DNA of 64,000 nt, from the NCBI GenBank assembly GCA_900552135.1, contig URYN01000008.1, positions 21,326 to 85,325 of the forward strand. Reading direction: 5' to 3'. Source of the stretch: an uncultured Clostridium sp. (GTDB lineage: Bacteria > Bacillota > Clostridia > TANB77 > CAG-508). A program made the translations under genes and the position numbers. Position 1 is the first letter of the stretch, and each line of letters starts with the position of its first letter. This document shows, in pieces, positions 7,202 through 55,616 of this stretch. The notes under the pieces were generated by a model that saw only the letters and a program-made list of their open reading frames with translations, was not told the origin of the DNA and searched no databases.

Positions 7202-7218
7202 AGGTTTTGTAATATATA

Positions 7219-7326
7219 TATTATCAAGAGTGGACGAGAGAATCGGCTTTATGACTCCACAGCAACCTATTGGGTTAGGTGCTAATACCGACAAAGTTAC
7301 GGAAAGTACTTTGAATGATGATTTCT
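7219..7326 (+). ncRNA. SAM-I (S-box) riboswitch aptamer upstream of metK
   Basis: UUAUCAAGAG...GCAACC...GGUGCUAAUACC...GAAUGAUGA blocks match S-box P1/P2/P3 consensus in order; followed by intrinsic terminator; gene context (metK) is the canonical target. Confidence 0.65.
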
Positions 7327-7370: not shown

Positions 7371-7463
7371 GCTTTTATAGAAATTAAAATTTATTTTAAT
7401 TAAATCAACTTGAGGGGAAAGAGACATTTGATAAGAAATGTATCTAATTGGGTTTTCAGTATA

Positions 7464-7494
7464 TCGCCCCAAAAGGGGCGTCCCCAATGGGCGA
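7464..7494 (-). repeat. 31-nt GC-rich palindromic hairpin element, copy 4, lying between riboswitch terminator and metK RBS
   Basis: TCGCCCCAAAAGGGGCGTCCCCAATGGGCGA; reverse complement matches copy 3 at 28/31. Confidence 0.8.
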
Positions 7495-7511
7495 TTTTGA
7501 AGGAGGAGAAT

Positions 7512-8654
7512 ATGAAAAGATTATTTACATCAGAGAGTGTTACAGGAGGACATCCGGATAAGCTATGTGATTATATATCGGATAGTATTCTGGATAGTTA
7601 TTTGGCAAAAGATAAGAATGCTAGAGTTGCTTGCGAAACCGTTGCGGGCAAAGGAGAAATTTATATAACTGGAGAAATTACATCGACTGCAAATGTTGAT
7701 ATTGAGCAGGTTGTGAGAGACACCATAAAAGAGGTTGGTTATGCAGATAGTGGGTACGATATTGATTACAGAACTTGCAAAATATACATAAGCTTATCTA
7801 AACAATCTCCTGATATTGCACAAGGAGTTGATAAATCGCTTGAAGATAAAGAAGGACAAGATGTTGAATCTGAAGGAGCCGGTGATCAAGGCTTAATGTT
7901 TGGTTATGCTTGTGATGAAACAGAGGAGTTAATGCCTCTTCCAATTTTGCTTGCACACAAGCTTTCTAAGAGATTGACTGAAGTTAGAAAAGAAAAAATA
8001 ATAGATTATTTAAGACCAGATGGTAAGACACAGGTTACAGTTGAATATGATGGAGACAAGCCTGTAAGAGTGGATACTATTGTTGTTTCTACACAACATC
8101 TACCTGATGTTGATATGGATATTTTAAAAAATGACATAATTAAAAAAGTTATAAAACCAACAGTTCCAGCCAATTTATTAGATGAAAACACAAAATATTT
8201 TATTAATCCAACAGGAAGATTTGTAATAGGTGGACCTCTTGGGGACAGTGGTCTTACAGGTAGAAAAATAATAGTTGATACTTATGGCGGAGCTGCAAGA
8301 CATGGTGGAGGAGCTTTTTCAGGAAAAGATCCTACAAAGGTTGACCGTTCGGCTTCTTATATGGCAAGACATATTGCAAAAAATATTGTTGCAAATGGTT
8401 ATGCAAAGAGATGCGAAATACAAATAGCATACAGCATTGGTGTGGCAAAACCAGTATCAATATATGTAAATACTTATGGAACCAATACAATTCCAGAAGA
8501 AGAGATTATAGAAAAAATAAATAATACATTTGATTTAACACCAAGAGGAATAATAAATTATCTTGATTTACAAAGGCCAATTTATAGACAAACAACAAAC
8601 TACGGTCATTTTGGAAAAAAAGACCTACCTTGGGAGAAAATTATAAAATTTTAA
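7512..8654 (+). CDS. metK: S-adenosylmethionine synthetase
   Basis: [21 protein letters not shown]-terminus, [16 protein letters not shown] and other MetK signature blocks; RBS GGAGGAG. Confidence 0.95.
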
Positions 8655-8683
8655 TTGACTGTACCAGTAATAAACAAAAAGAA

Positions 8684-8712
8684 TTGACATAATATTAAAA
8701 AAGATGTATACT
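8684..8712 (+). promoter_or_regulatory. Sigma-A-like promoter TTGACA-17-TATACT for Spo0A_C gene
   Basis: Read directly. Confidence 0.5.
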
Positions 8713-8756
8713 AGAAATATCAGGGATAACCTGAAAACAAAAAAGGAGATGCAAAC

Positions 8757-9218
8757 ATGATTTCAAAAGATGAGAAAAAATTCTTGGAAGAAACTAGGGA
8801 CGATCTTAAGCGGATTCTTAGACGCATCGAATGCACTCTAGCAGTTGATGCCACTAGCAGCTATGACGCAATGGAGGACCAAAGCAAAAGCGAAGAATAT
8901 ATTGTTACGCAATACCTAATGAAACTTGGAGTACCTACATCTGTAACAGGATTTGGGTATATAAAGAGTGGAGTTCTCTATCTCCTCAAAGAAGAGAACA
9001 GGAGAGTACTTGTAACAAGGGAACTCTATCCGAAAATTGCAGAAGAATACAATTCATCAGTATCAAAAGTGGAACGTGCAATTCGCACAGCAATTGGAAA
9101 GGCAGAGAGGAGATGTACTAAAGAGTTACAAATAATCTTGTATGATCGTGAAGAGCTTAGGCTTACTAACATGGAATTCATAACACTGGTTACAGAAAAG
9201 ATTAGATTGGGATTATAA
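8757..9218 (+). CDS. Spo0A C-terminal (DNA-binding) domain-only protein, no receiver domain
   Basis: ELYPKIAEEYNSSVSKVERAIRTAI and NMEFITLVTEKIRL match the Spo0A_C effector domain recognition helix region; 153 aa, too short for a receiver domain. Confidence 0.7.
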   Translation: MISKDEKKFLEETRDDLKRILRRIECTLAVDATSSYDAMEDQSKSEEYIVTQYLMKLGVPTSVTGFGYIKSGVLYLLKEENRRVLVTRELYPKIAEEYNSSVSKVERAIRTAIGKAERRCTKELQIILYDREELRLTNMEFITLVTEKIRLGL

Positions 9219-9227
9219 CAGCATCTC

Positions 9228-9268
9228 GGGGGAAGGACACTCGCAGTTGAGTGTCTTTCCCCATTTTG
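9228..9268 (+). terminator. Intrinsic terminator (GGGGGAAGGACACTC-loop-GAGTGTCTTTCCCC + ATTTTG)
   Basis: 14-bp stem with one G-U pair. Confidence 0.65.
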
Positions 9269-9387
9269 ACGATAATTATTTCAAAATTCAACCATTGAAT
9301 ATAAAACATTTTATACTAGCAGGTCAGTCTTATATAATTTTACGATTTTTATGATACAATGTAAAAAAATTGCAAAAGGAGCAACAC

Positions 9388-10383
9388 ATGAAAAAGAAAA
9401 ACATTATAAAAAAGATATTAATTACACTACTAATTATAGTTATAATTATCGTATTAGCAACCATAGGAATAGGGAACTATTTTGTTAATTATGCAATATT
9501 AAGAACAGGAAATGGTGGAGATAGAGAAGTAAAAAATACAGAAGTAGTAGAAGTTGCAAGTATCGATAACGAAATAGAAAAAATCATAGAAAAAAATAGA
9601 AAACAGGAAAAGCAACATGCAAGTGAGTGGTCAGATACTGTAAAAAACGAAAAAGTTGAAGTTACTGCAAAAGATGGAATAACTTTAAAAGGAACGGAGT
9701 ATATAAACGACGAGCAAACTAATAATTGGGTAATTGTTTTGCATGGCTATCGCTCAAGTCCAGAATCTGTAATTTCAGTAGGAATGCATTTCTCAGAAAA
9801 AGGATATAATGTGCTAATTCCATATATGAGGGCAACTGGTGAGAGTGAAGGCGAATATATAGGAATGGGCTGGTTAGATAAAGATGATTTAAAATGCTGG
9901 ATAGACTTAATCATAAAACAAAATAATAATGCAAATATTGTATTACATGGCTCGTCAATGGGAGCTGCAACAGTGCTTATGGCATCAGGTGACGAACTTT
10001 CAAGCAATGTAAAAGCAATAATAGAAGATAGTGGATATACATCAGTATGGGATATATTCGCCTCAGAAGCTAAAGCTAGATTTAATTTGCCAGAATTTCC
10101 GGTATTAAATATGTTTGAAGTAGTTGCAAATTTCAGGGCAAAATACGATATTAAAGAAGCATCAGCATTAGAGCAAGTGAAAAAAGCAACTGTTCCAATA
10201 TTATTTATTCATGGAGATAATGATGACTTTGTTCCGGAGTATATGTGTGAAAAATTATATGAAGCAGCTAATTGCAAGAAAGACAAACTGATAATACATG
10301 GTGCTGGGCATACTGAATCAAGATATAGAGAGCCAGATACATATTATAATAAGATATTTGAATTCTTAAGTGATATAAGATAA
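9388..10383 (+). CDS. Membrane-anchored alpha/beta hydrolase (S9/BAAT-like)
   Basis: N-terminal TM helix; HGYRSS...LHGSSMGAAT nucleophile elbow; FIHGDNDDFV; start ATG 9388 after AAAGGAG. Confidence 0.7.
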   Translation: MKKKNIIKKILITLLIIVIIIVLATIGIGNYFVNYAILRTGNGGDREVKNTEVVEVASIDNEIEKIIEKNRKQEKQHASEWSDTVKNEKVEVTAKDGITLKGTEYINDEQTNNWVIVLHGYRSSPESVISVGMHFSEKGYNVLIPYMRATGESEGEYIGMGWLDKDDLKCWIDLIIKQNNNANIVLHGSSMGAATVLMASGDELSSNVKAIIEDSGYTSVWDIFASEAKARFNLPEFPVLNMFEVVANFRAKYDIKEASALEQVKKATVPILFIHGDNDDFVPEYMCEKLYEAANCKKDKLIIHGAGHTESRYREPDTYYNKIFEFLSDIR

Positions 10384-49210: not shown

Positions 49211-49780
49211 ATGAAATTACTAATGCATACCTGCTGTGCACCATGTAGCGTGTACTGTATAGACAAACTAAGAGAAGAAGGAATAGAACCAACAGTATAC
49301 TGGTATAATCCAAATATCCACCCATACACGGAATACAAAGCACGTAGAGAATGCTTAAAAGAATATACAAAATCAATAAATGTACAAGCCATATTCGAAG
49401 AAGAATATGGCTTAGATGAGTTTTGCAAGGAAGCCGTAAAAAATTTAAACGCAAGATGTGTTAATTATTGCTATCCAGTTAGACTTAGAAAAACATTTGA
49501 ATATGCAAAAGAACATGGCTATGATACTGTTACTACCACATTGCTATACAGCATATATCAGAAACATGACTTTATAAAAAAATTAATGGAGCAGTACAGT
49601 GAAGAGTATGGAATAGATTTCTTGTACAGAGATTTTAGAGTAGGATTTTGGGAAGGACACCAAAAAGCTCATGACTTAGGTCTATATATGCAAAAATACT
49701 GTGGCTGTGTGTTTAGTGAGGAGGACAGATATGCTAAGCAAATCAAACGTGATAAAGAAAATATATTGACATCAAAATAA
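49211..49780 (+). CDS. queH: Epoxyqueuosine reductase QueH (DUF208)
   Basis: LLMHTCCAPCS N-terminal motif and CGC near C-terminus. Confidence 0.75.
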   Translation: MKLLMHTCCAPCSVYCIDKLREEGIEPTVYWYNPNIHPYTEYKARRECLKEYTKSINVQAIFEEEYGLDEFCKEAVKNLNARCVNYCYPVRLRKTFEYAKEHGYDTVTTTLLYSIYQKHDFIKKLMEQYSEEYGIDFLYRDFRVGFWEGHQKAHDLGLYMQKYCGCVFSEEDRYAKQIKRDKENILTSK

Positions 49781-49888
49781 ATCTGATATAAAATTTGATT
49801 AATAGTTTATAAGGAGCAATAAATATAGGTTAATAATAAAAAAATACGCGGCAAGAACTAAATAAAAAAGGAAAGGCGGTATTTTTTT

Positions 49889-50896
49889 ATGAATGATTTA
49901 GAATTAAATTTTTCGGAAATTATTAACATGATTGAAACAAGAAGACAAAATGCTTACAAAAAAGTAAATGAAGAGCTAATCTCCTTATATTGGGACTTCG
50001 GAAAATATATAAGTGAGAAAGTAAATGATTCTAACTGGGGAGATAAAATTGTAGACAAGTTAGTAGAATTTATGAAAAGAGAATATCCTACAATGAGAGG
50101 ATTTACTAGACGTGGAATATATAGAATGAAACAATTCTATGAAACATACAAAGATAATGAATTTGTGTCAACACTGTTGACACAAATTAGTTGGAGCAAT
50201 AATGTAAAGATTTTGAGTTCTACTAAATCTATTGAAGAGAAAGAATTTTATATAAAAATGTGCATTAAGTATAATTATACTGCTAGAGAATTAGATAGAC
50301 AAATTTCAAGTGGATATTTTTATAGATATATGTTATCAGACGGAAAGGCAAATCAAAGTTTATCAAAAGCTGTAGGAGAAGAAGACTATCCTAATACCAG
50401 AATATTAGACACTTATAGTTTAGAATTTTTGGATTTACCGAATCAGTATTCGGAAAGAGATTTGAAGAAATCAATTATTTCTAATATGAAGGATTTTATT
50501 TTAGAAATTGGAAAAGATTTTACTTATGTTGGCGAAGAATATAGAGTACAAGTTGGAAATGCAGATTTTTATATTGACTTATTATTTTACAATAGGGCCT
50601 TAAGTTGTTTAGTTGTTTTTGAACTTAAAACAGATGATTTTAAACCAGAATACATTTCAAAAATGGACTTTTATTTGGAAGCATTAGATAGACAAGAGAA
50701 AAAAGAAAACGAAAATCCGAGTGTGGGTGTAATTTTGTGTGCAAGTAAAAATGAACAAGTAGTTGAATATGCAATGAGCAGAAGTATGTCACCAACTATG
50801 GTATCTCAATATACATTGAATTTGATAGATAAGAAATTGTTGGAAAACAAATTGAAGGAAATTACGAATATAGTCGAGGAAAATAATAATAAATAA
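49889..50896 (+). CDS. YhcG-like protein: DUF1016 N-terminal domain + PDDEXK nuclease-fold C-terminal domain
   Basis: GNADFYIDLLFYNRALSCLVVFELK (D...EXK) block. Confidence 0.6.
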   Translation: MNDLELNFSEIINMIETRRQNAYKKVNEELISLYWDFGKYISEKVNDSNWGDKIVDKLVEFMKREYPTMRGFTRRGIYRMKQFYETYKDNEFVSTLLTQISWSNNVKILSSTKSIEEKEFYIKMCIKYNYTARELDRQISSGYFYRYMLSDGKANQSLSKAVGEEDYPNTRILDTYSLEFLDLPNQYSERDLKKSIISNMKDFILEIGKDFTYVGEEYRVQVGNADFYIDLLFYNRALSCLVVFELKTDDFKPEYISKMDFYLEALDRQEKKENENPSVGVILCASKNEQVVEYAMSRSMSPTMVSQYTLNLIDKKLLENKLKEITNIVEENNNK

Positions 50897-51090
50897 TTTT
50901 ATAGTCTTAACGACTTATCGAATGAGAAGATTAAGAGAAAAGAAAATGTATTCGAATTACTATAAATTCCCTAATAGTCACACACAAATTTACATAATTG
51001 ACTTTCGCACAGAAATTTGGTAAAATAAAAGTGTTGGCAGTGGCCAAAGCAAATCGCATATCCAAAATAACTATTTGGGAGGTTGCAACA

Positions 51091-51669
51091 ATGCAAAACA
51101 AGTTTACAAGAAGCTACTATGTTGGTTTGTGGAGTGAAATATTATCCACATATCAATGGTGGGGACGGGATCTCGTAACACTGCTGGAAAGCATTAAAGA
51201 AACAGACCCCGTTGTTGTAGAAACTTTCTGGAAGATGTACAACAAAACTGATGGAAAGTACAGTATTAAAACTTTGAGAGGTTACAAGTTCTATGAAATT
51301 CTTTCTCGGTTTATGGGAAGTGATGAGAAACTTGAGGTAAGTACTCGAGTAAAATCACTGAAAAAAGAAAACGAACTTCTTCAGACGAAATTGTTGGAGT
51401 GTTATAGAAGAAGGGATATTTTGATTGCAATCCTGTGTTTCACGCAGGAATTTGCAAACAAGAGGGCGGACAACGTCAGTATGTCCAGATACGGAAATGT
51501 TTTGACGGCTCGCTCGGACTCAGTGGACTTCTATGCTGAGCAAGACAGAAAACGGAAGGTGACCTATATAAGGATTACAATCCCTTGTGAACTGTGTATG
51601 GAGTACTGGCTCTGTGGAATTGAAAATGTTCCCGGAATCGAGTACATCATGAAAAAAACTGCAAAATAA
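51091..51669 (+). CDS. Hypothetical protein encoded in a GC-rich (~40%) patch, likely horizontally acquired
   Basis: ATG 51091 after GGGAGG; local GC markedly above flanks; no family recognised. Confidence 0.45.
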   Translation: MQNKFTRSYYVGLWSEILSTYQWWGRDLVTLLESIKETDPVVVETFWKMYNKTDGKYSIKTLRGYKFYEILSRFMGSDEKLEVSTRVKSLKKENELLQTKLLECYRRRDILIAILCFTQEFANKRADNVSMSRYGNVLTARSDSVDFYAEQDRKRKVTYIRITIPCELCMEYWLCGIENVPGIEYIMKKTAK

Positions 51670-51675
51670 TAAGTC

Positions 51676-51720
51676 TGGGACCCGGTACTTTTTAAGTGCC
51701 GGGGTTCCGGGCTTTTTTAT
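51676..51720 (+). terminator. GC-rich intrinsic terminator (GGGACCCGG...CCGGGGTTCC/GGGC + TTTTTTAT)
   Basis: Read directly. Confidence 0.5.
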
Positions 51721-51966
51721 ATTGAAAAAATCATTAATATTTATTTGAAAAATTTGCATAAATTTGAATTTGAAAATCAAAAAAGAAAAAAATTATATAA
51801 CTCACGATAAATCGTCAAGTGAAAAGTTAAATGCAATTCTGTAAAGTAAATGCAATTTACAATAAACTTAAAAAATTTTATTATATTGTTGAAAATTAAT
51901 CAAAAAAGTTATAGAATGTGATATAGCTATAGGTTGTTTATAACAAAACAAATGAAAGGGAAAAAT

Positions 51967-52672
51967 AATGAAAAATAAAGCAGTATTTATAGTTGTCATA
52001 GTTGCAATACTAATTATTATTACAACAATTAGTATTAATAACAATGAATAAAGATACTGGCTCTTCAAACACTACATTGAATGTAAAAGATGGAACAACA
52101 GTTATTTCGGATTCGGCAATTATAAATAAGAGCAAAATTACCAAAATTATAATGCCACCAACATTAAAAAAGATTGGAAATAGTGCTATATGTGGCTGTT
52201 CTAACTTAATTAGTGTAGAATTAAATGAGGGCTTAGAGGATATTGGAAATAATGCATTTTCTGCTTGCTCTTCATTAACTTCCATCACATTGCCTAGTAC
52301 ACTAAAATATATTAGATATCGTGCATTCTATAATTGTAGAAACATTGAATTTGGAAATCTCGTAACATTGAATTTGGAAATCTCGTAATTACGGAAGGTG
52401 TAAAAACGATAGGATCGTATTCATTCTATTATTGTTTGGGTATTAAAAGTTTAAAAACGCCTACTACACTATTTATGATTGCACAAAACACATTTAATAA
52501 TTGCTATAATTTGGAAAATGTAGAATTAGGAGAAGGCCTTAGAATAATAACAGAATATCAAACACCAGATAATGTATTAGAAAGTCCTCATAGTTATTAC
52601 AATTATATGAAAGAAAATTACACAAAAAGAATAGATGGTGCAATGATGTTAAAATTAATACGAAAGGAATAA
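51967..52672 (+). pseudogene. BspA-type leucine-rich-repeat surface protein gene, decayed: signal peptide split off by frameshift near 52044 and body broken by 23-bp tandem duplication
   Basis: MKNKAVFIVVIVAILIIITT signal ORF 51967-52050 in another frame; LRR units (IGNSAFSACSSLTSITLPSTLKYI); removing one 23-bp unit restores a single frame through 52672. Confidence 0.6.
52343..52388 (+). repeat. Perfect 23-bp tandem duplication (ACATTGAATTTGGAAATCTCGTA x2)
   Basis: Read directly; causes frameshift and TAA at 52386-88. Confidence 0.9.
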
Positions 52673-52680
52673 ATTGTAAT

Positions 52681-53880
52681 ATGAGAGATATTTTAAAAGA
52701 TTATAGAGCTGATGAAAATAATCCAAAATGGAAGAACATCGTTTCAAGGCAGAAATCTCTGTACAAAAGAGACGAAGACCTACGTTCTGAATTCGAAAGA
52801 GACTATACGAGAGTAATACATAGTAACAGTTATAGAAGAATGAAACATAAAACTCAGGTCATATTTTCGCCTGAAAATGACCATATATGTACAAGAACGG
52901 AACATGTTACTCATGTTGAATCAATCAGTTATACCATTGCCAAATATTTAGGACTAAACACAGAACTTACAAAGGCCATTGCGACTGCACACGATATTGG
53001 GCATAGTCCATTTGGGCATCAAGGCGAAAGAATACTGTCAGCAATATCACAAAGAGACTTGTCAAAGAAGTTTTGGCATGAGAAAAATGGTGTAGACTGC
53101 GTAGATAAAATAGAAGTTTTAGAAGATACTCATGGAGATTTTCAAAACCTTAATTTGACATATGCAACAAGAGATGGAATTATTTCTCATTGCGGAGAAA
53201 TCGACGAAAATTATTTAAGACCCAGAGAAGAATTCATCGATTTGAATGAATACAAAGAGCCAAACCAATATGCTCCTTACACATGGGAAGGCTGTGTTGT
53301 AAAGATTGCAGATAAGATTTCTTATTTAGGAAGAGATATTGAAGATGCTATAACACTTGGAATTTTAGACGATCATCTGGAAGAATTACATCAAATCTTG
53401 GAAGAGGCTCCAACACAAGTAATAAACAATACTGTTATAATAAACACATTAATAAGAGATTTATGTGAGAATTCTTCTTATGAAAAAGGCTTGTGCTTTT
53501 CAAAAGAAATATTTGATTGGATAAATAAGCTTAAGAAATTTAATTATAAATATATTTATATGTCACCAAAAGTGCGTAAAGCAATTCCATATTTTGAATT
53601 AATAATAAATACAATATATGAAACACTTATCGAGGCTTTTGATGGAAAAAATACTGACAACAATTTGGAAAAAATGAGTAAACAATATCCTGAACTTATT
53701 GCAAGCTTTAGAGAGTGGATGGCTAGATATTGGAATTTAGAAAGGCCAGTGAATTACAAAAATGATGTAATATTTAATATGGAAAATAAATCAGACTTTA
53801 GTAATGCAATAATTTATTATATATCTGGAATGACAGATAATTTCGCTATAGAAACATATAACAAAATAATTAGATTTTAA
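52681..53880 (+). CDS. dGTP triphosphohydrolase-like HD-domain protein
   Basis: YRRMKHKTQVF...RTEHVTHVESI...HDIGHSPFGH; family pattern of Dgt-like dNTPases. Confidence 0.75.
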   Translation: MRDILKDYRADENNPKWKNIVSRQKSLYKRDEDLRSEFERDYTRVIHSNSYRRMKHKTQVIFSPENDHICTRTEHVTHVESISYTIAKYLGLNTELTKAIATAHDIGHSPFGHQGERILSAISQRDLSKKFWHEKNGVDCVDKIEVLEDTHGDFQNLNLTYATRDGIISHCGEIDENYLRPREEFIDLNEYKEPNQYAPYTWEGCVVKIADKISYLGRDIEDAITLGILDDHLEELHQILEEAPTQVINNTVIINTLIRDLCENSSYEKGLCFSKEIFDWINKLKKFNYKYIYMSPKVRKAIPYFELIINTIYETLIEAFDGKNTDNNLEKMSKQYPELIASFREWMARYWNLERPVNYKNDVIFNMENKSDFSNAIIYYISGMTDNFAIETYNKIIRF

Positions 53881-53993: not shown

Positions 53994-55616
53994 ATGAAAA
54001 AAATAATGGAAATTATTGCTGAAAGAAATTATAGTGAAGAAACGAAAAAATATATATTGTTATTTATTGACTCTTTTTCAGGAGTTTATGGAAAGTTCAT
54101 TTCTAAAGAAGAGTTGGTAAGAAGAATTACAAAAAACTTAACTTCTGATATTAATTTTACAAAAAATATAGATGACATGAATATTGGTTTATATAACCAA
54201 GCTACAAGACAAATTAGTATAAGGAAAACTGAGGTTGACTTTGAACACATCATAATACATGAAATGATTCATTGTATAACAAATTATTCTAATGAAGAAC
54301 AAATTGTAGATGGCTTTGACAGAACCATAGAGGACTTTGATAACAGAGGTTTTATATCTGAGGGCAAAGGCCTTAATGAGGGAATGGTTGATTACATGAC
54401 TAAACAAATTTGTGATAAATATAATTACAGCTTCAAAAGTGGATATAAAAGATTAAATGAAATTATAAAACACTTACTTCCGTTCACAGGGGAAAGTCTT
54501 ATAAAAGAATTTTTAAGTGAAAATTGTGATGTTCGAGGAATTTTAGAAGATATTGGCATCGAAGCTGAAACTTTTATTTCTGATGTTGATATGGTTGAAG
54601 CTAAGGAAAGAGCAAGACGAACAGTTTTTGATGAAGATAATTCAAAACTTGAAAATATGGTTTCTGCAATGAGAAAGATTGCGATGATATATCCTAGAGC
54701 CCAAACTGTTACAGAGCTAATTAGAAAGTACAATTTTTTTAAATCTTTATGCAAAGAATTTTTTGATCAAAATGAATTTGATATATTTAGTTTATTAATT
54801 GAAGATATTAGAGATTTGAAGCAAAAAGGTGTTGATTTATCTGAAGCAAGATTTATGACAAGGGATGAAGCTGTTAAAAGAGCTTTTAAAGCTGATAGTG
54901 CAATAACAAGAATTATGAGTATGAGTAGAGATGAAGTTGCATTAAATTTGGAAGATTTGTTATATGAAGATGATGACACTACAAATGTATTAGCACCAAG
55001 AATACATGAATATTTATTTTATGGAGAAAAATGCGGAAAAGAGATTTCGAACAGACTATATAGTTTAATTTCTGTTAAGAATTATTTAAGGGAGCACCCT
55101 GAAATTGATTACAGAGAATTGTCTTTTGCGGTATATGATTATTTAAATATTTTTGTGGCCTACGATAAAGATGAAAAAAAAGTTAATATATATGATTTAG
55201 GAGAAGATGAAATTCTTTCAGAAACACCAGAAGGGCTTGAAGATGATACAGAAATGGTTAAAGTATATGGAAGTGTAGTTAAAGATGCAGAATATAAATT
55301 ATATGTAGCAAAAAGCCAAAGAAGGCATTTTGAGAAAGATGGAATGCCTCAAGTATTAATAGAAATTGCTGAAAAGGATTGTGTAAGAAAGCAAAGAAAT
55401 TTAGACGAGATGAAAGAAGAAATAGAAGAAAGTAAAGAACGCAGAATGACTAATATTTTACAGAATAAGCAGGCTACTCAATCAGCTGAATTAGCTGAAG
55501 CAAAAGACGTAAAAGCAACATCAGCTTCAAATGAATTAAATGCAGTAAATAACACAGGCTATACAGGTAATAATAAGTCTTCTGATGAATCTAAGAAAGA
55601 GGGACAAGATAGATAA
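53994..55616 (+). CDS. Hypothetical 540-aa protein with N-terminal HExxH (IIIHEMIHCI) putative zinc-metallopeptidase motif and acidic C-terminal region
   Basis: Own promoter-like TTGACT-17-TAAAAT at 53891-53919; no family recognised beyond motif. Confidence 0.45.
   Translation: MKKIMEIIAERNYSEETKKYILLFIDSFSGVYGKFISKEELVRRITKNLTSDINFTKNIDDMNIGLYNQATRQISIRKTEVDFEHIIIHEMIHCITNYSNEEQIVDGFDRTIEDFDNRGFISEGKGLNEGMVDYMTKQICDKYNYSFKSGYKRLNEIIKHLLPFTGESLIKEFLSENCDVRGILEDIGIEAETFISDVDMVEAKERARRTVFDEDNSKLENMVSAMRKIAMIYPRAQTVTELIRKYNFFKSLCKEFFDQNEFDIFSLLIEDIRDLKQKGVDLSEARFMTRDEAVKRAFKADSAITRIMSMSRDEVALNLEDLLYEDDDTTNVLAPRIHEYLFYGEKCGKEISNRLYSLISVKNYLREHPEIDYRELSFAVYDYLNIFVAYDKDEKKVNIYDLGEDEILSETPEGLEDDTEMVKVYGSVVKDAEYKLYVAKSQRRHFEKDGMPQVLIEIAEKDCVRKQRNLDEMKEEIEESKERRMTNILQNKQATQSAELAEAKDVKATSASNELNAVNNTGYTGNNKSSDESKKEGQDR

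Follow-up and report, generated by a model that had tools for sequence, protein, structure and literature searches.

A probable horizontally acquired, strain-variable orphan gene with foreign codon usage between queH and dgt in an uncultured gut Clostridium

The locus and its expression signals

We analyzed a stretch of 64,000 nucleotides from an uncultured Clostridium sp. (assembly GCA_900552135.1, contig URYN01000008.1, positions 21,326 to 85,325 of the forward strand), called here the window, and within it one open reading frame (ORF), gene X, situated between queH and dgt. Gene X occupies window positions 51091-51669 on the forward strand, from an ATG at 51091 to a TAA at 51667-51669, and has 192 codons plus the stop. 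It is a coding gene under purifying selection with codon usage foreign to the genome around it, it is present in some and absent from other near-identical strains, and it resides in a recombination hotspot. The reading that we favor, with a probability of roughly 0.8, is that the X unit is a horizontally acquired, self-contained, dispensable and strain-variable gene of the queH-dgt interval. Below, L-numbered loci are the contigs compared with the window.

The predicted signals for expression of X, together with the other features discussed, are listed in Table 1. The putative promoter agreed with the consensus at 10 of 12 positions and had the upstream TG; this result of a consensus scan is a pattern match alone. 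Its sequence was invariant in five same-species loci, and distant homologs of X had equivalent promoters with a TGn -10 element as well as strong Shine-Dalgarno sequences. A longer ORF with a TTG start at 50998 is not credible, since this start falls inside the promoter. At the other end of the gene, the hairpin at 51671-51714 had a predicted energy of -32.8 kcal/mol (z -6.5 compared to shuffled sequences). The stable G+C-rich stem, the U-tract and the position 3' of the stop codon are those of a predicted Rho-independent terminator, and it was the most stable combination of a post-gene hairpin and a T-run in the window (-29 kcal/mol compared to -18 kcal/mol for the next one). The first-pass annotation of this DNA had described a GC-rich hairpin terminator unlike the others; it is indeed so, and the hairpin is both larger than first described and the strongest in the window. 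In L004 the terminator was kept; a U-to-C change there replaces a G·U pair by a G-C pair. The X unit was monocistronic in every context seen.

Two variants of the region 5' of X were observed. In L024 (9950-9976), a contig of the same species, the equivalent of window positions 50885-51065 was deleted, which removes the whole promoter of X and all of its leader but the last 25 nt before the ATG; X is apparently promoterless there, and this could be either a real deletion or an assembly artifact. In L001 and L003 a 44-bp insertion (AATTATTAGTGTCAAGAAGTTTCGGAAAATTAGTCCAAAGATAT) was located between the equivalents of window positions 50986 and 50987, just 5' of the -35 box of X.

Table 1. Coordinates of features at the X locus and at the loci of X homologs
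Feature	Contig	Position	Strand	Description
Serine-recombinase element	L019	1-9750		Insertion at window ~49715-49725
Serine-recombinase element	L121	1-4750		Insertion at window ~49715-49725
Indel cassette	Window	49764..50884	+	queH 3' end, spacer and gene for a YhcG/DUF1016 PD-(D/E)xK nuclease; BLASTN breakpoints and junction sequences
yhcG gene	Window	49889-50896		Pfam YhcG_C/DUF1016_N; PADLOC candidate PDC-S02
Predicted promoter, sigma-70/sigma-A type	Window	50998..51026	+	-35 TTGACT (50998-51003), 17-nt spacer, extended -10 TGgTAAAAT (51018-51026)
Palindrome TTGGC-AGTG-GCCAA	Window	51034..51047	+	About 8 nt past the -10, at or close to the predicted start of the transcript
Putative ribosome-binding site (RBS), GGGAGG	Window	51077..51082	+	8 nt before the ATG; AGGAGG in relatives
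Hypervariable patch 1	Window	51145-51180		Codons 19-30 of X
Hypervariable patch 2	Window	51385-51420		Codons 99-110 of X
Predicted rho-independent terminator	Window	51671..51719	+	G+C-rich hairpin, arms of ~20 nt with one bulge, then TTTTTT
Decayed remnants of genes downstream of X	Window	51969..52672	+	BLASTN to L001 and L004; Pfam LRR_5 on both LRR fragments
Right junction of the X-less allele	Window	52639..52680	+	L031 compared with the window; identical in L117, L121, L122 and L123
Leader hairpin	L006, L025, L026			CCTAGTA-aat-TACTAGG
Leader hairpin	L113			ACTAGCA-t-TGCTAGT
Leader hairpin	L008			TCTTTA-N8-TAAAGA
Leader hairpin	L111			GGTT-taa-AACC
tRNA-Gly(UCC) site near X subfamily	L006	4797-4870
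tRNA-Gly(UCC) site near X subfamily	L026	5971-6218
tRNA-Gly(UCC) site near X subfamily	L025	3032-3279
tRNA-Thr(CGU)	L008	5711-5786		X copy 2.2 kb downstream

Foreign codon usage in a gene under purifying selection

In the first-pass annotation the ORF had been singled out as richer in G+C than its surroundings, and the measurements agree with this. X had a GC content of 39.4%, whereas the window as a whole had 29.3%, the gene upstream of X 27.5% and the 960 nt that follow X 25.4%. The GC-richest 579-nt stretch of the window (40.9%) lies almost wholly inside the X ORF and its terminator; for the ORF itself the deviation from the window corresponds to a z score of 3.1.

We observed that this compositional excess is confined to synonymous positions. 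With 50 plausible genes of the window taken as the reference, the GC content at third codon positions (GC3) was 44.0% in X compared to 20.9±3.4% (z 6.85), while the z scores for first and second codon positions were 0.06 and 1.4. X also had the lowest codon-fit score among all these genes (z -7.9). The fractions of many codons in X differed several-fold from those of the host: 28% compared to 3% for CTG, 21% compared to less than 1% for CGG, 21% compared to 6% for ACG and 31% compared to 5% for ATC, with CCC making up two of the three proline codons of X and 2% of those of the host. Conversely, TTA (6% in X, 47% in the host) and ATA (15% and 57%) were depleted. G occupied 25% of third positions in X and 11% in the host. 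Since G-ending and rare codons were raised alongside the C-ending ones, it is unlikely that codon selection driven by expression caused the pattern; translational selection would favor only the C-ending pyrimidine codons.

In comparison with the allele of L004, the rate of synonymous substitution (dS) in X was 0.22 and its ratio of nonsynonymous to synonymous rates (dN/dS) was 0.32. In the same comparison, the dN/dS values of the neighboring genes were 0.02 for queH, 0.17 for yhcG and 0.05 for dgt. Gene X is a genuine protein gene under purifying selection.

Second to X in GC content and in atypical codon usage (GC 38%, GC3 33%) was a gene at 8757-9218 of the window. It encodes a stand-alone protein of 153 aa that has the C-terminal domain of Spo0A only, without a receiver domain.

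Presence and absence among near-identical strains

About 157 collection blocks, for the most part assemblies from the human gut, and one metagenome-assembled genome (MAG) at NCBI (GCA_964329245.1) contained the exact X protein, whose cluster at 90% identity had 52 members. Still, X is missing from some strains of the same species. A single X-less allele was observed, in which queH is joined, via two short remnants of yhcG, to window position 52639, 42 nt before dgt. This allele was carried by five of the 15 accounted contigs (L117 and one more, L121, L122 and L123) and, besides these, by L031; in L121 it lies behind a recombinase element. There was no tblastn match to X in L117, L121, L122 and L123. 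As the X-less contigs rejoin the window at 52639, the strain-variable segment that carries X ends at 52638. The flanks of the X-less allele were 98-99.5% identical to the window, and the dGTPase protein was identical in L117, L121, L122 and L123.

The whole queH-dgt interval is a strain-level recombination hotspot. The indel cassette that ends next to X was present in the window as well as in L016, L020 and L023, and was cleanly absent, between two GAAAATA repeats, in L015, L017, L018, L021 and L022. In the strains with the deleted cassette, queH takes over the last codons of yhcG and encodes a QueH of 186 aa. In L019 an element with two tandem genes for large serine recombinases (558 and 560 aa) was inserted in the 3' end of queH. 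The same junction was seen in backgrounds with X (L019) and without X (L121). The element and X were found together as well as each without the other; therefore, the two are independent. The element of L019 and L121 also carries a DUF6870 gene, a sigma-70-like gene and a helix-turn-helix (HTH) gene.

On the 3' side of X, L004 has genes for a 141-aa transmembrane (TM) protein, a 68-aa ORF product, a 1196-aa BspA-type LRR_5 protein and a 500-aa protein. What the window has in the corresponding place is a 27-codon stub of the gene for the 141-aa TM protein and two fragments of the BspA-type LRR_5 protein gene. The LRR_5 protein had a length of 1196 aa in both L004 and L125, and the region of the remnants differed in almost every strain examined.

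Further downstream, dgt (window 52681-53880) encodes an HD protein of the dGTP triphosphohydrolase family. Its product scored below the NCBIfam equivalog cut-offs and barely above the cut-off of the dGTP_triPase subfamily, and it matched the PADLOC dGTPase model at 4e-52. The gene after dgt (53994-55616) encodes a 540-aa protein whose length differs between strains (498 or 540 aa) and which had no Pfam, NCBIfam or PADLOC family.

The protein and its family in other genomes

A word-indexed search detected 24 homologs of X, all metagenomic. An exhaustive profile search of 1.84 billion representatives gave only 29 clusters at E<1e-3, all from uncultured Clostridia. The family members have 170-200 aa and could be aligned over their full lengths even at identities of about 20%. 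Among the 185,579 GTDB representatives, a single one, a Clostridia MAG from roe-deer caecum, carried a homolog of X (43% identity). The observation of the first-pass annotation that the protein has no recognizable family was confirmed: no match was found in searches of Pfam, NCBIfam, PADLOC, PHROGs and PDB. The Pfam, NCBIfam and PHROGs searches, made with X and its relatives, returned noise only, and so did the PDB sequence-profile searches with the A1 and A3 alignments. Judged from these searches, X belongs to a tiny, unannotated family.

X is predicted to be a soluble, basic (isoelectric point, pI, 9.1) alpha/beta protein with 13% aromatic residues. The AlphaFold (AF2) model made from the 29-sequence alignment had a mean predicted local distance difference test score (pLDDT) of 91.4 and a predicted template modeling score (pTM) of 0.88; an earlier run on 13 sequences was poor (pLDDT 54) and was set aside. 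The model has three N-terminal helices, an alpha/beta region, a five-strand meander and a C-terminal helix. A Foldseek search with the model against PDB and BFVD found no significant neighbor. The best matches, which were LolA-like, fatty-acid-binding-protein-like (FABP-like) and roadblock-like folds, share with the model an antiparallel beta-sheet packed on helices; however, the template modeling (TM) scores did not exceed 0.30 (0.29 in BFVD) and the E-values were 0.04 or higher. On the basis of the predicted model, no fold could be assigned to X from these matches.

The genomic contexts of the homologs were diverse. Members of a 182-aa subfamily were located 1-3 kb downstream of tRNA-Gly(UCC), with differing genes in between (L006, L025, L026), and the copy in L008 follows a tRNA-Thr(CGU) gene (Table 1). 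Such sites look like tRNA-adjacent variable regions, with the restriction that proximity to tRNA genes was seen for other X subfamilies only and not for X of the window. In L006 the homolog is placed among genes for two large serine recombinases, TnpV, Mob_Pre and a SocA/Panacea pair, while the sequence shared between L006 and L025/L026 is limited to about 700 bp covering the promoter, leader and ORF. Other members were situated among housekeeping genes, for example, in the orders pfk-X-lexA (L112) and sua5-X (L113). An all-against-all comparison of the X neighbors revealed no conserved partner gene and no recurring neighbor family. At 79 loci with a 60-69% identical dGTPase there was no X within 9 kb, which is a weak test given that synteny is not conserved there. 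No member of the family was found in IMG/VR with the A1 alignment, and four family members used as tblastn queries had no match among INPHARED phages or PLSDB plasmids. Next to the homolog in L006, on the minus strand (8631-9882), we observed genes for a 258-aa TM/coiled-coil protein and for a protein with a SocA_Panacea domain; these likely form a toxin-antitoxin pair.

In all eight host contexts (L006, L026, L025, L008, L112, L113, L004 and the window) the GC3 of X was above that of its neighbors, with z scores from 1.0 to 8.3 and with raised G at third positions. A family that looks foreign everywhere may have been transferred repeatedly from a GC-richer reservoir, or it may be subject to a family-intrinsic constraint.

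Origin of the X unit

Under the reading that we favor, horizontal transfer would have brought X from a donor with a clearly higher GC content at synonymous sites, probably around 40% GC overall, into a gut Clostridia-like lineage of about 29% GC. The segment 50998-51719 is a self-contained monocistronic unit made of a predicted sigma-A promoter, a short leader, a strong RBS, the ORF and a very strong intrinsic terminator, and X would be expressed from this promoter. X would now be a dispensable gene, carried by some strains, in the hotspot between queH and dgt.

Acquired single-gene islets and ORFans are reportedly recognized by atypical codon usage, within the amelioration framework attributed to Lawrence and Ochman. 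X resembles them in its deviation at synonymous sites only, in its patchy, strain-variable distribution, in its hotspot location and in having its own predicted promoter and terminator. On the other hand, acquired genes are usually AT-richer than the host, while X is GC-richer; the borders of X in the window come without an integrase, a tRNA gene or a repeat; and the X family is GC3-rich relative to every host examined.

The acquisition can be placed in relative time. In the L004 sublineage X occupies the same site, with flanks about 96% identical and with a GC3 of 45%, and the dS of X between the window and L004 is equal to that of the flanking queH. The shared site and the equal dS indicate that X was acquired before the split with the L004 sublineage. 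The first-pass annotation had proposed a recent acquisition from a higher-GC donor. The foreign codon usage, the strain variability and the hotspot speak for the acquisition, while "recent" has to be taken in a relative sense, as the event predates a split at dS 0.22; the word applies only insofar as amelioration has not set in.

Several observations weigh against this account. The excess of GC3 in all eight contexts could reflect a bias intrinsic to the family rather than one transfer event. X is not a very recent arrival, given that its dS between the two sublineages is the same as that of queH. The X-less allele holds remnants of yhcG and, therefore, may be a secondary deletion rather than the ancestral empty site. 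The window contains no tRNA gene, X is not bordered in it by mobility genes or direct repeats, and no donor of X was identified.

Alternative explanations

X could instead be a native, vertically inherited gene whose high GC3 arose from translational optimization of a very highly expressed gene or from the family-intrinsic constraint mentioned above. Such a gene would explain why the homologs exceed their neighbors in GC3 in every context, why C-ending two-fold codons (TAC, AAC, TTC, GAC, ATC) are enriched, and why the dS of X equals that of queH; the predicted promoter, RBS and terminator also look as if built for strong expression. We find this unlikely, as CTG, CGG, AGG, ACG and CCC are enriched as much as the C-ending codons, and G takes up 25% of the third positions compared to 11% in the host. 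Moreover, metK, typically a well-expressed gene, has host-like third positions, and X is missing from strains of the same species and from all but one of the GTDB representatives. It is also quite improbable that X is cargo or a remnant of an integrative element with large serine recombinases, for instance, an accessory or directionality factor. The two recombinase genes of L019 do end about 500 nt upstream of X, and in L006 the X homolog follows a gene for a 627-aa serine recombinase and a 99-aa ORF. However, the L019 element was inserted into the queH 3' end, some 250 nt before X, and has the same junction in the X-less L121, so that it neither contains X nor co-varies with it. Most X-positive strains have no recombinase nearby, other homologs have no recombinase neighbor, and the recombinases of L006 and L019 are only 23-27% identical. 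There is hardly any likelihood that the ORF is fortuitous and the GC-rich stretch a non-coding element such as a structured RNA. GC-rich islands in AT-rich genomes are often RNA genes, and the region does end in a strong hairpin. Yet Rfam gave no relevant match, either for the whole window at the gathering threshold or for 50700-52000 at E<=10, with only weak sub-threshold matches on the terminator. Coding constraint was found instead: protein-level conservation that extends to homologs of about 20% identity, with indel lengths divisible by three, the dN/dS of 0.32, a confident AF2 fold and a canonical RBS.

The remaining alternative concerns regulation. The TTGGC-N4-GCCAA palindrome noted in the first-pass annotation is present, and was described there as operator-like; on this reading X would be an autoregulated DNA-binding protein and the palindrome, which overlaps the predicted transcription start, its operator. 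Its place directly after the -10, the palindromes at the same relative position in the leaders of distant homologs and the basic character of X fit such a role. We nevertheless consider it very unlikely. The 3' arm of the palindrome is broken in close relatives (GCCCGA in L001 and L003, GACCAA in L004 and L005), while the intergenic DNA is otherwise about 96% identical, and the palindrome is perfect in this strain only. It is also at chance level: an equivalent 5+5 palindrome with at least three G:C pairs and a loop of 3-8 nt occurs in 8% of 194-nt windows of this sequence, and 5+5 palindromes of any kind number 2.6 per 194 nt. The fold of the X leader was no better than that of shuffled sequences (z -0.18). 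The other subfamilies have hairpins at the same relative position, just after the -10, that are unrelated in sequence (Table 1). Leader symmetry kept without sequence conservation would be more in line with a 5' RNA stem-loop than with an operator bound by homologous proteins. Neither X nor 28 relatives matched a DNA-binding family of Pfam or NCBIfam, HTH or other, and PDB gave no sequence or fold match; the candidate "recognition" helix at residues 40-49 (PVVVETFWKM) is hydrophobic and acidic. The best reading of the palindrome, from the sequence comparison, is a chance occurrence or a dispensable stem-loop near the 5' end of the mRNA, and not an operator.

The ermC and aprE leaders are 5'-terminal stem-loops that stabilize mRNA in Gram-positive bacteria. 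As in these leaders, a short putative hairpin of X starts within a few nucleotides of the predicted transcription start, and the likeness extends to the other X subfamilies, whose hairpins have different sequences at the same position. The differences are that the stem of X has only 5 bp and is weakened in sister strains, and that its transcription start is a predicted one. A sigma-54 reading of TTGGCA was rejected, since the GG-to-GC spacing is 13 and not 11.

A SAM-I riboswitch (70.5 bits) was found at 7218-7324 upstream of metK (S-adenosylmethionine synthetase, 7410-8654), which is the expected arrangement.

Hypervariable patches and a possible function

Amino acid replacements in X were clustered. 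Between the alleles of the window and L004, codons 19-30 and 99-110 together had 16 nonsynonymous changes and one synonymous change, with permutation p values of <5e-5 and 2e-4 for the clustering in the two patches. Several sites in the patches had three or more alleles in the population. In about one third of the alleles, patch 1 overwrites the most conserved motif of the family, W-G-x-D-L. An origin of the patches from a diversity-generating retroelement (DGR) was rejected, as neither a reverse transcriptase nor a template repeat was present nearby and the 14-nt repeat D18 was at chance level. No family-wide catalytic motif was observed in X; the CxxC of "IPCELC" is limited to two subfamilies.

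We tentatively suggest as one possibility that X is a non-enzymatic binding protein that acts alone in genetic conflict (phage defense, exclusion or immunity). The guess is prompted by X being accessory, by the lack of a conserved partner gene and of a catalytic motif, by the replacements in two multi-allele patches, and by the hotspot location, with a PADLOC candidate nuclease and a dGTPase-family gene as neighbors. Against it stand the absence of PADLOC matches to X, of phage, plasmid or IMG/VR homologs and of a conserved neighbor, as well as the distant members located among housekeeping genes. Specifically, PADLOC-DB 2.0 gave no defense family for X, P0019 and P0037 at E<=0.1, so that X has no hidden Markov model match to known anti-phage defense systems; the PADLOC matches among the neighbors of X were YhcG (PDC-S02) and dgt (dGTPase model).

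Two kinds of known genes offer comparisons. The lactococcal abortive-infection (Abi) genes are stand-alone single-gene defense genes of low-GC Firmicutes. Similarly to Abi-type genes and residents of defense islands, X is monocistronic, accessory, compositionally atypical and, judging by its predicted signals, apparently constitutive; it stands beside YhcG and a dGTPase-family gene, and its replacements are locally concentrated. Unlike defense genes of these kinds, X matches no PADLOC model, has homologs elsewhere among housekeeping genes and would have a defense role by conjecture. The SUKH/SMI1-KNR4 and Imm families are orphan immunity proteins of polymorphic-toxin systems. X is likewise predicted to be small, soluble, non-enzymatic and alpha/beta, it is strain-variable, and it has hypervariable patches that look like surface ones; it differs in belonging to no Pfam immunity family and in having no toxin gene adjacent in the roughly ten contexts examined.

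A bolder and more doubtful proposal is that X founds a new conflict family of single proteins in gut Clostridia, with an alpha/beta fold that has no solved or viral predicted neighbor, with two patches that would recognize a fast-evolving partner, and with repeated movement between genomes. Such movement would account for the foreign composition in every host.

Implications

If the favored reading holds, X would be a clear-cut case of an orphan gene gained by lateral transfer and dispensable to its host, an uncultured bacterium of the human gut. For annotation, its value is that X is a real gene, neither an RNA nor an artifact, and that it marks the queH-dgt interval as a strain-level hotspot. 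The case is slightly above the ordinary in that the family is annotated nowhere and yet is confidently folded in the predicted model, with no Foldseek neighbor in PDB or BFVD; in that the within-species replacements fall in two patches, one of them over the most conserved motif; and in that GC3 is above that of the host everywhere examined. Should the conflict function be true, X, as a single gene of 579 bp, would be a cheap candidate for defense or immunity screening.

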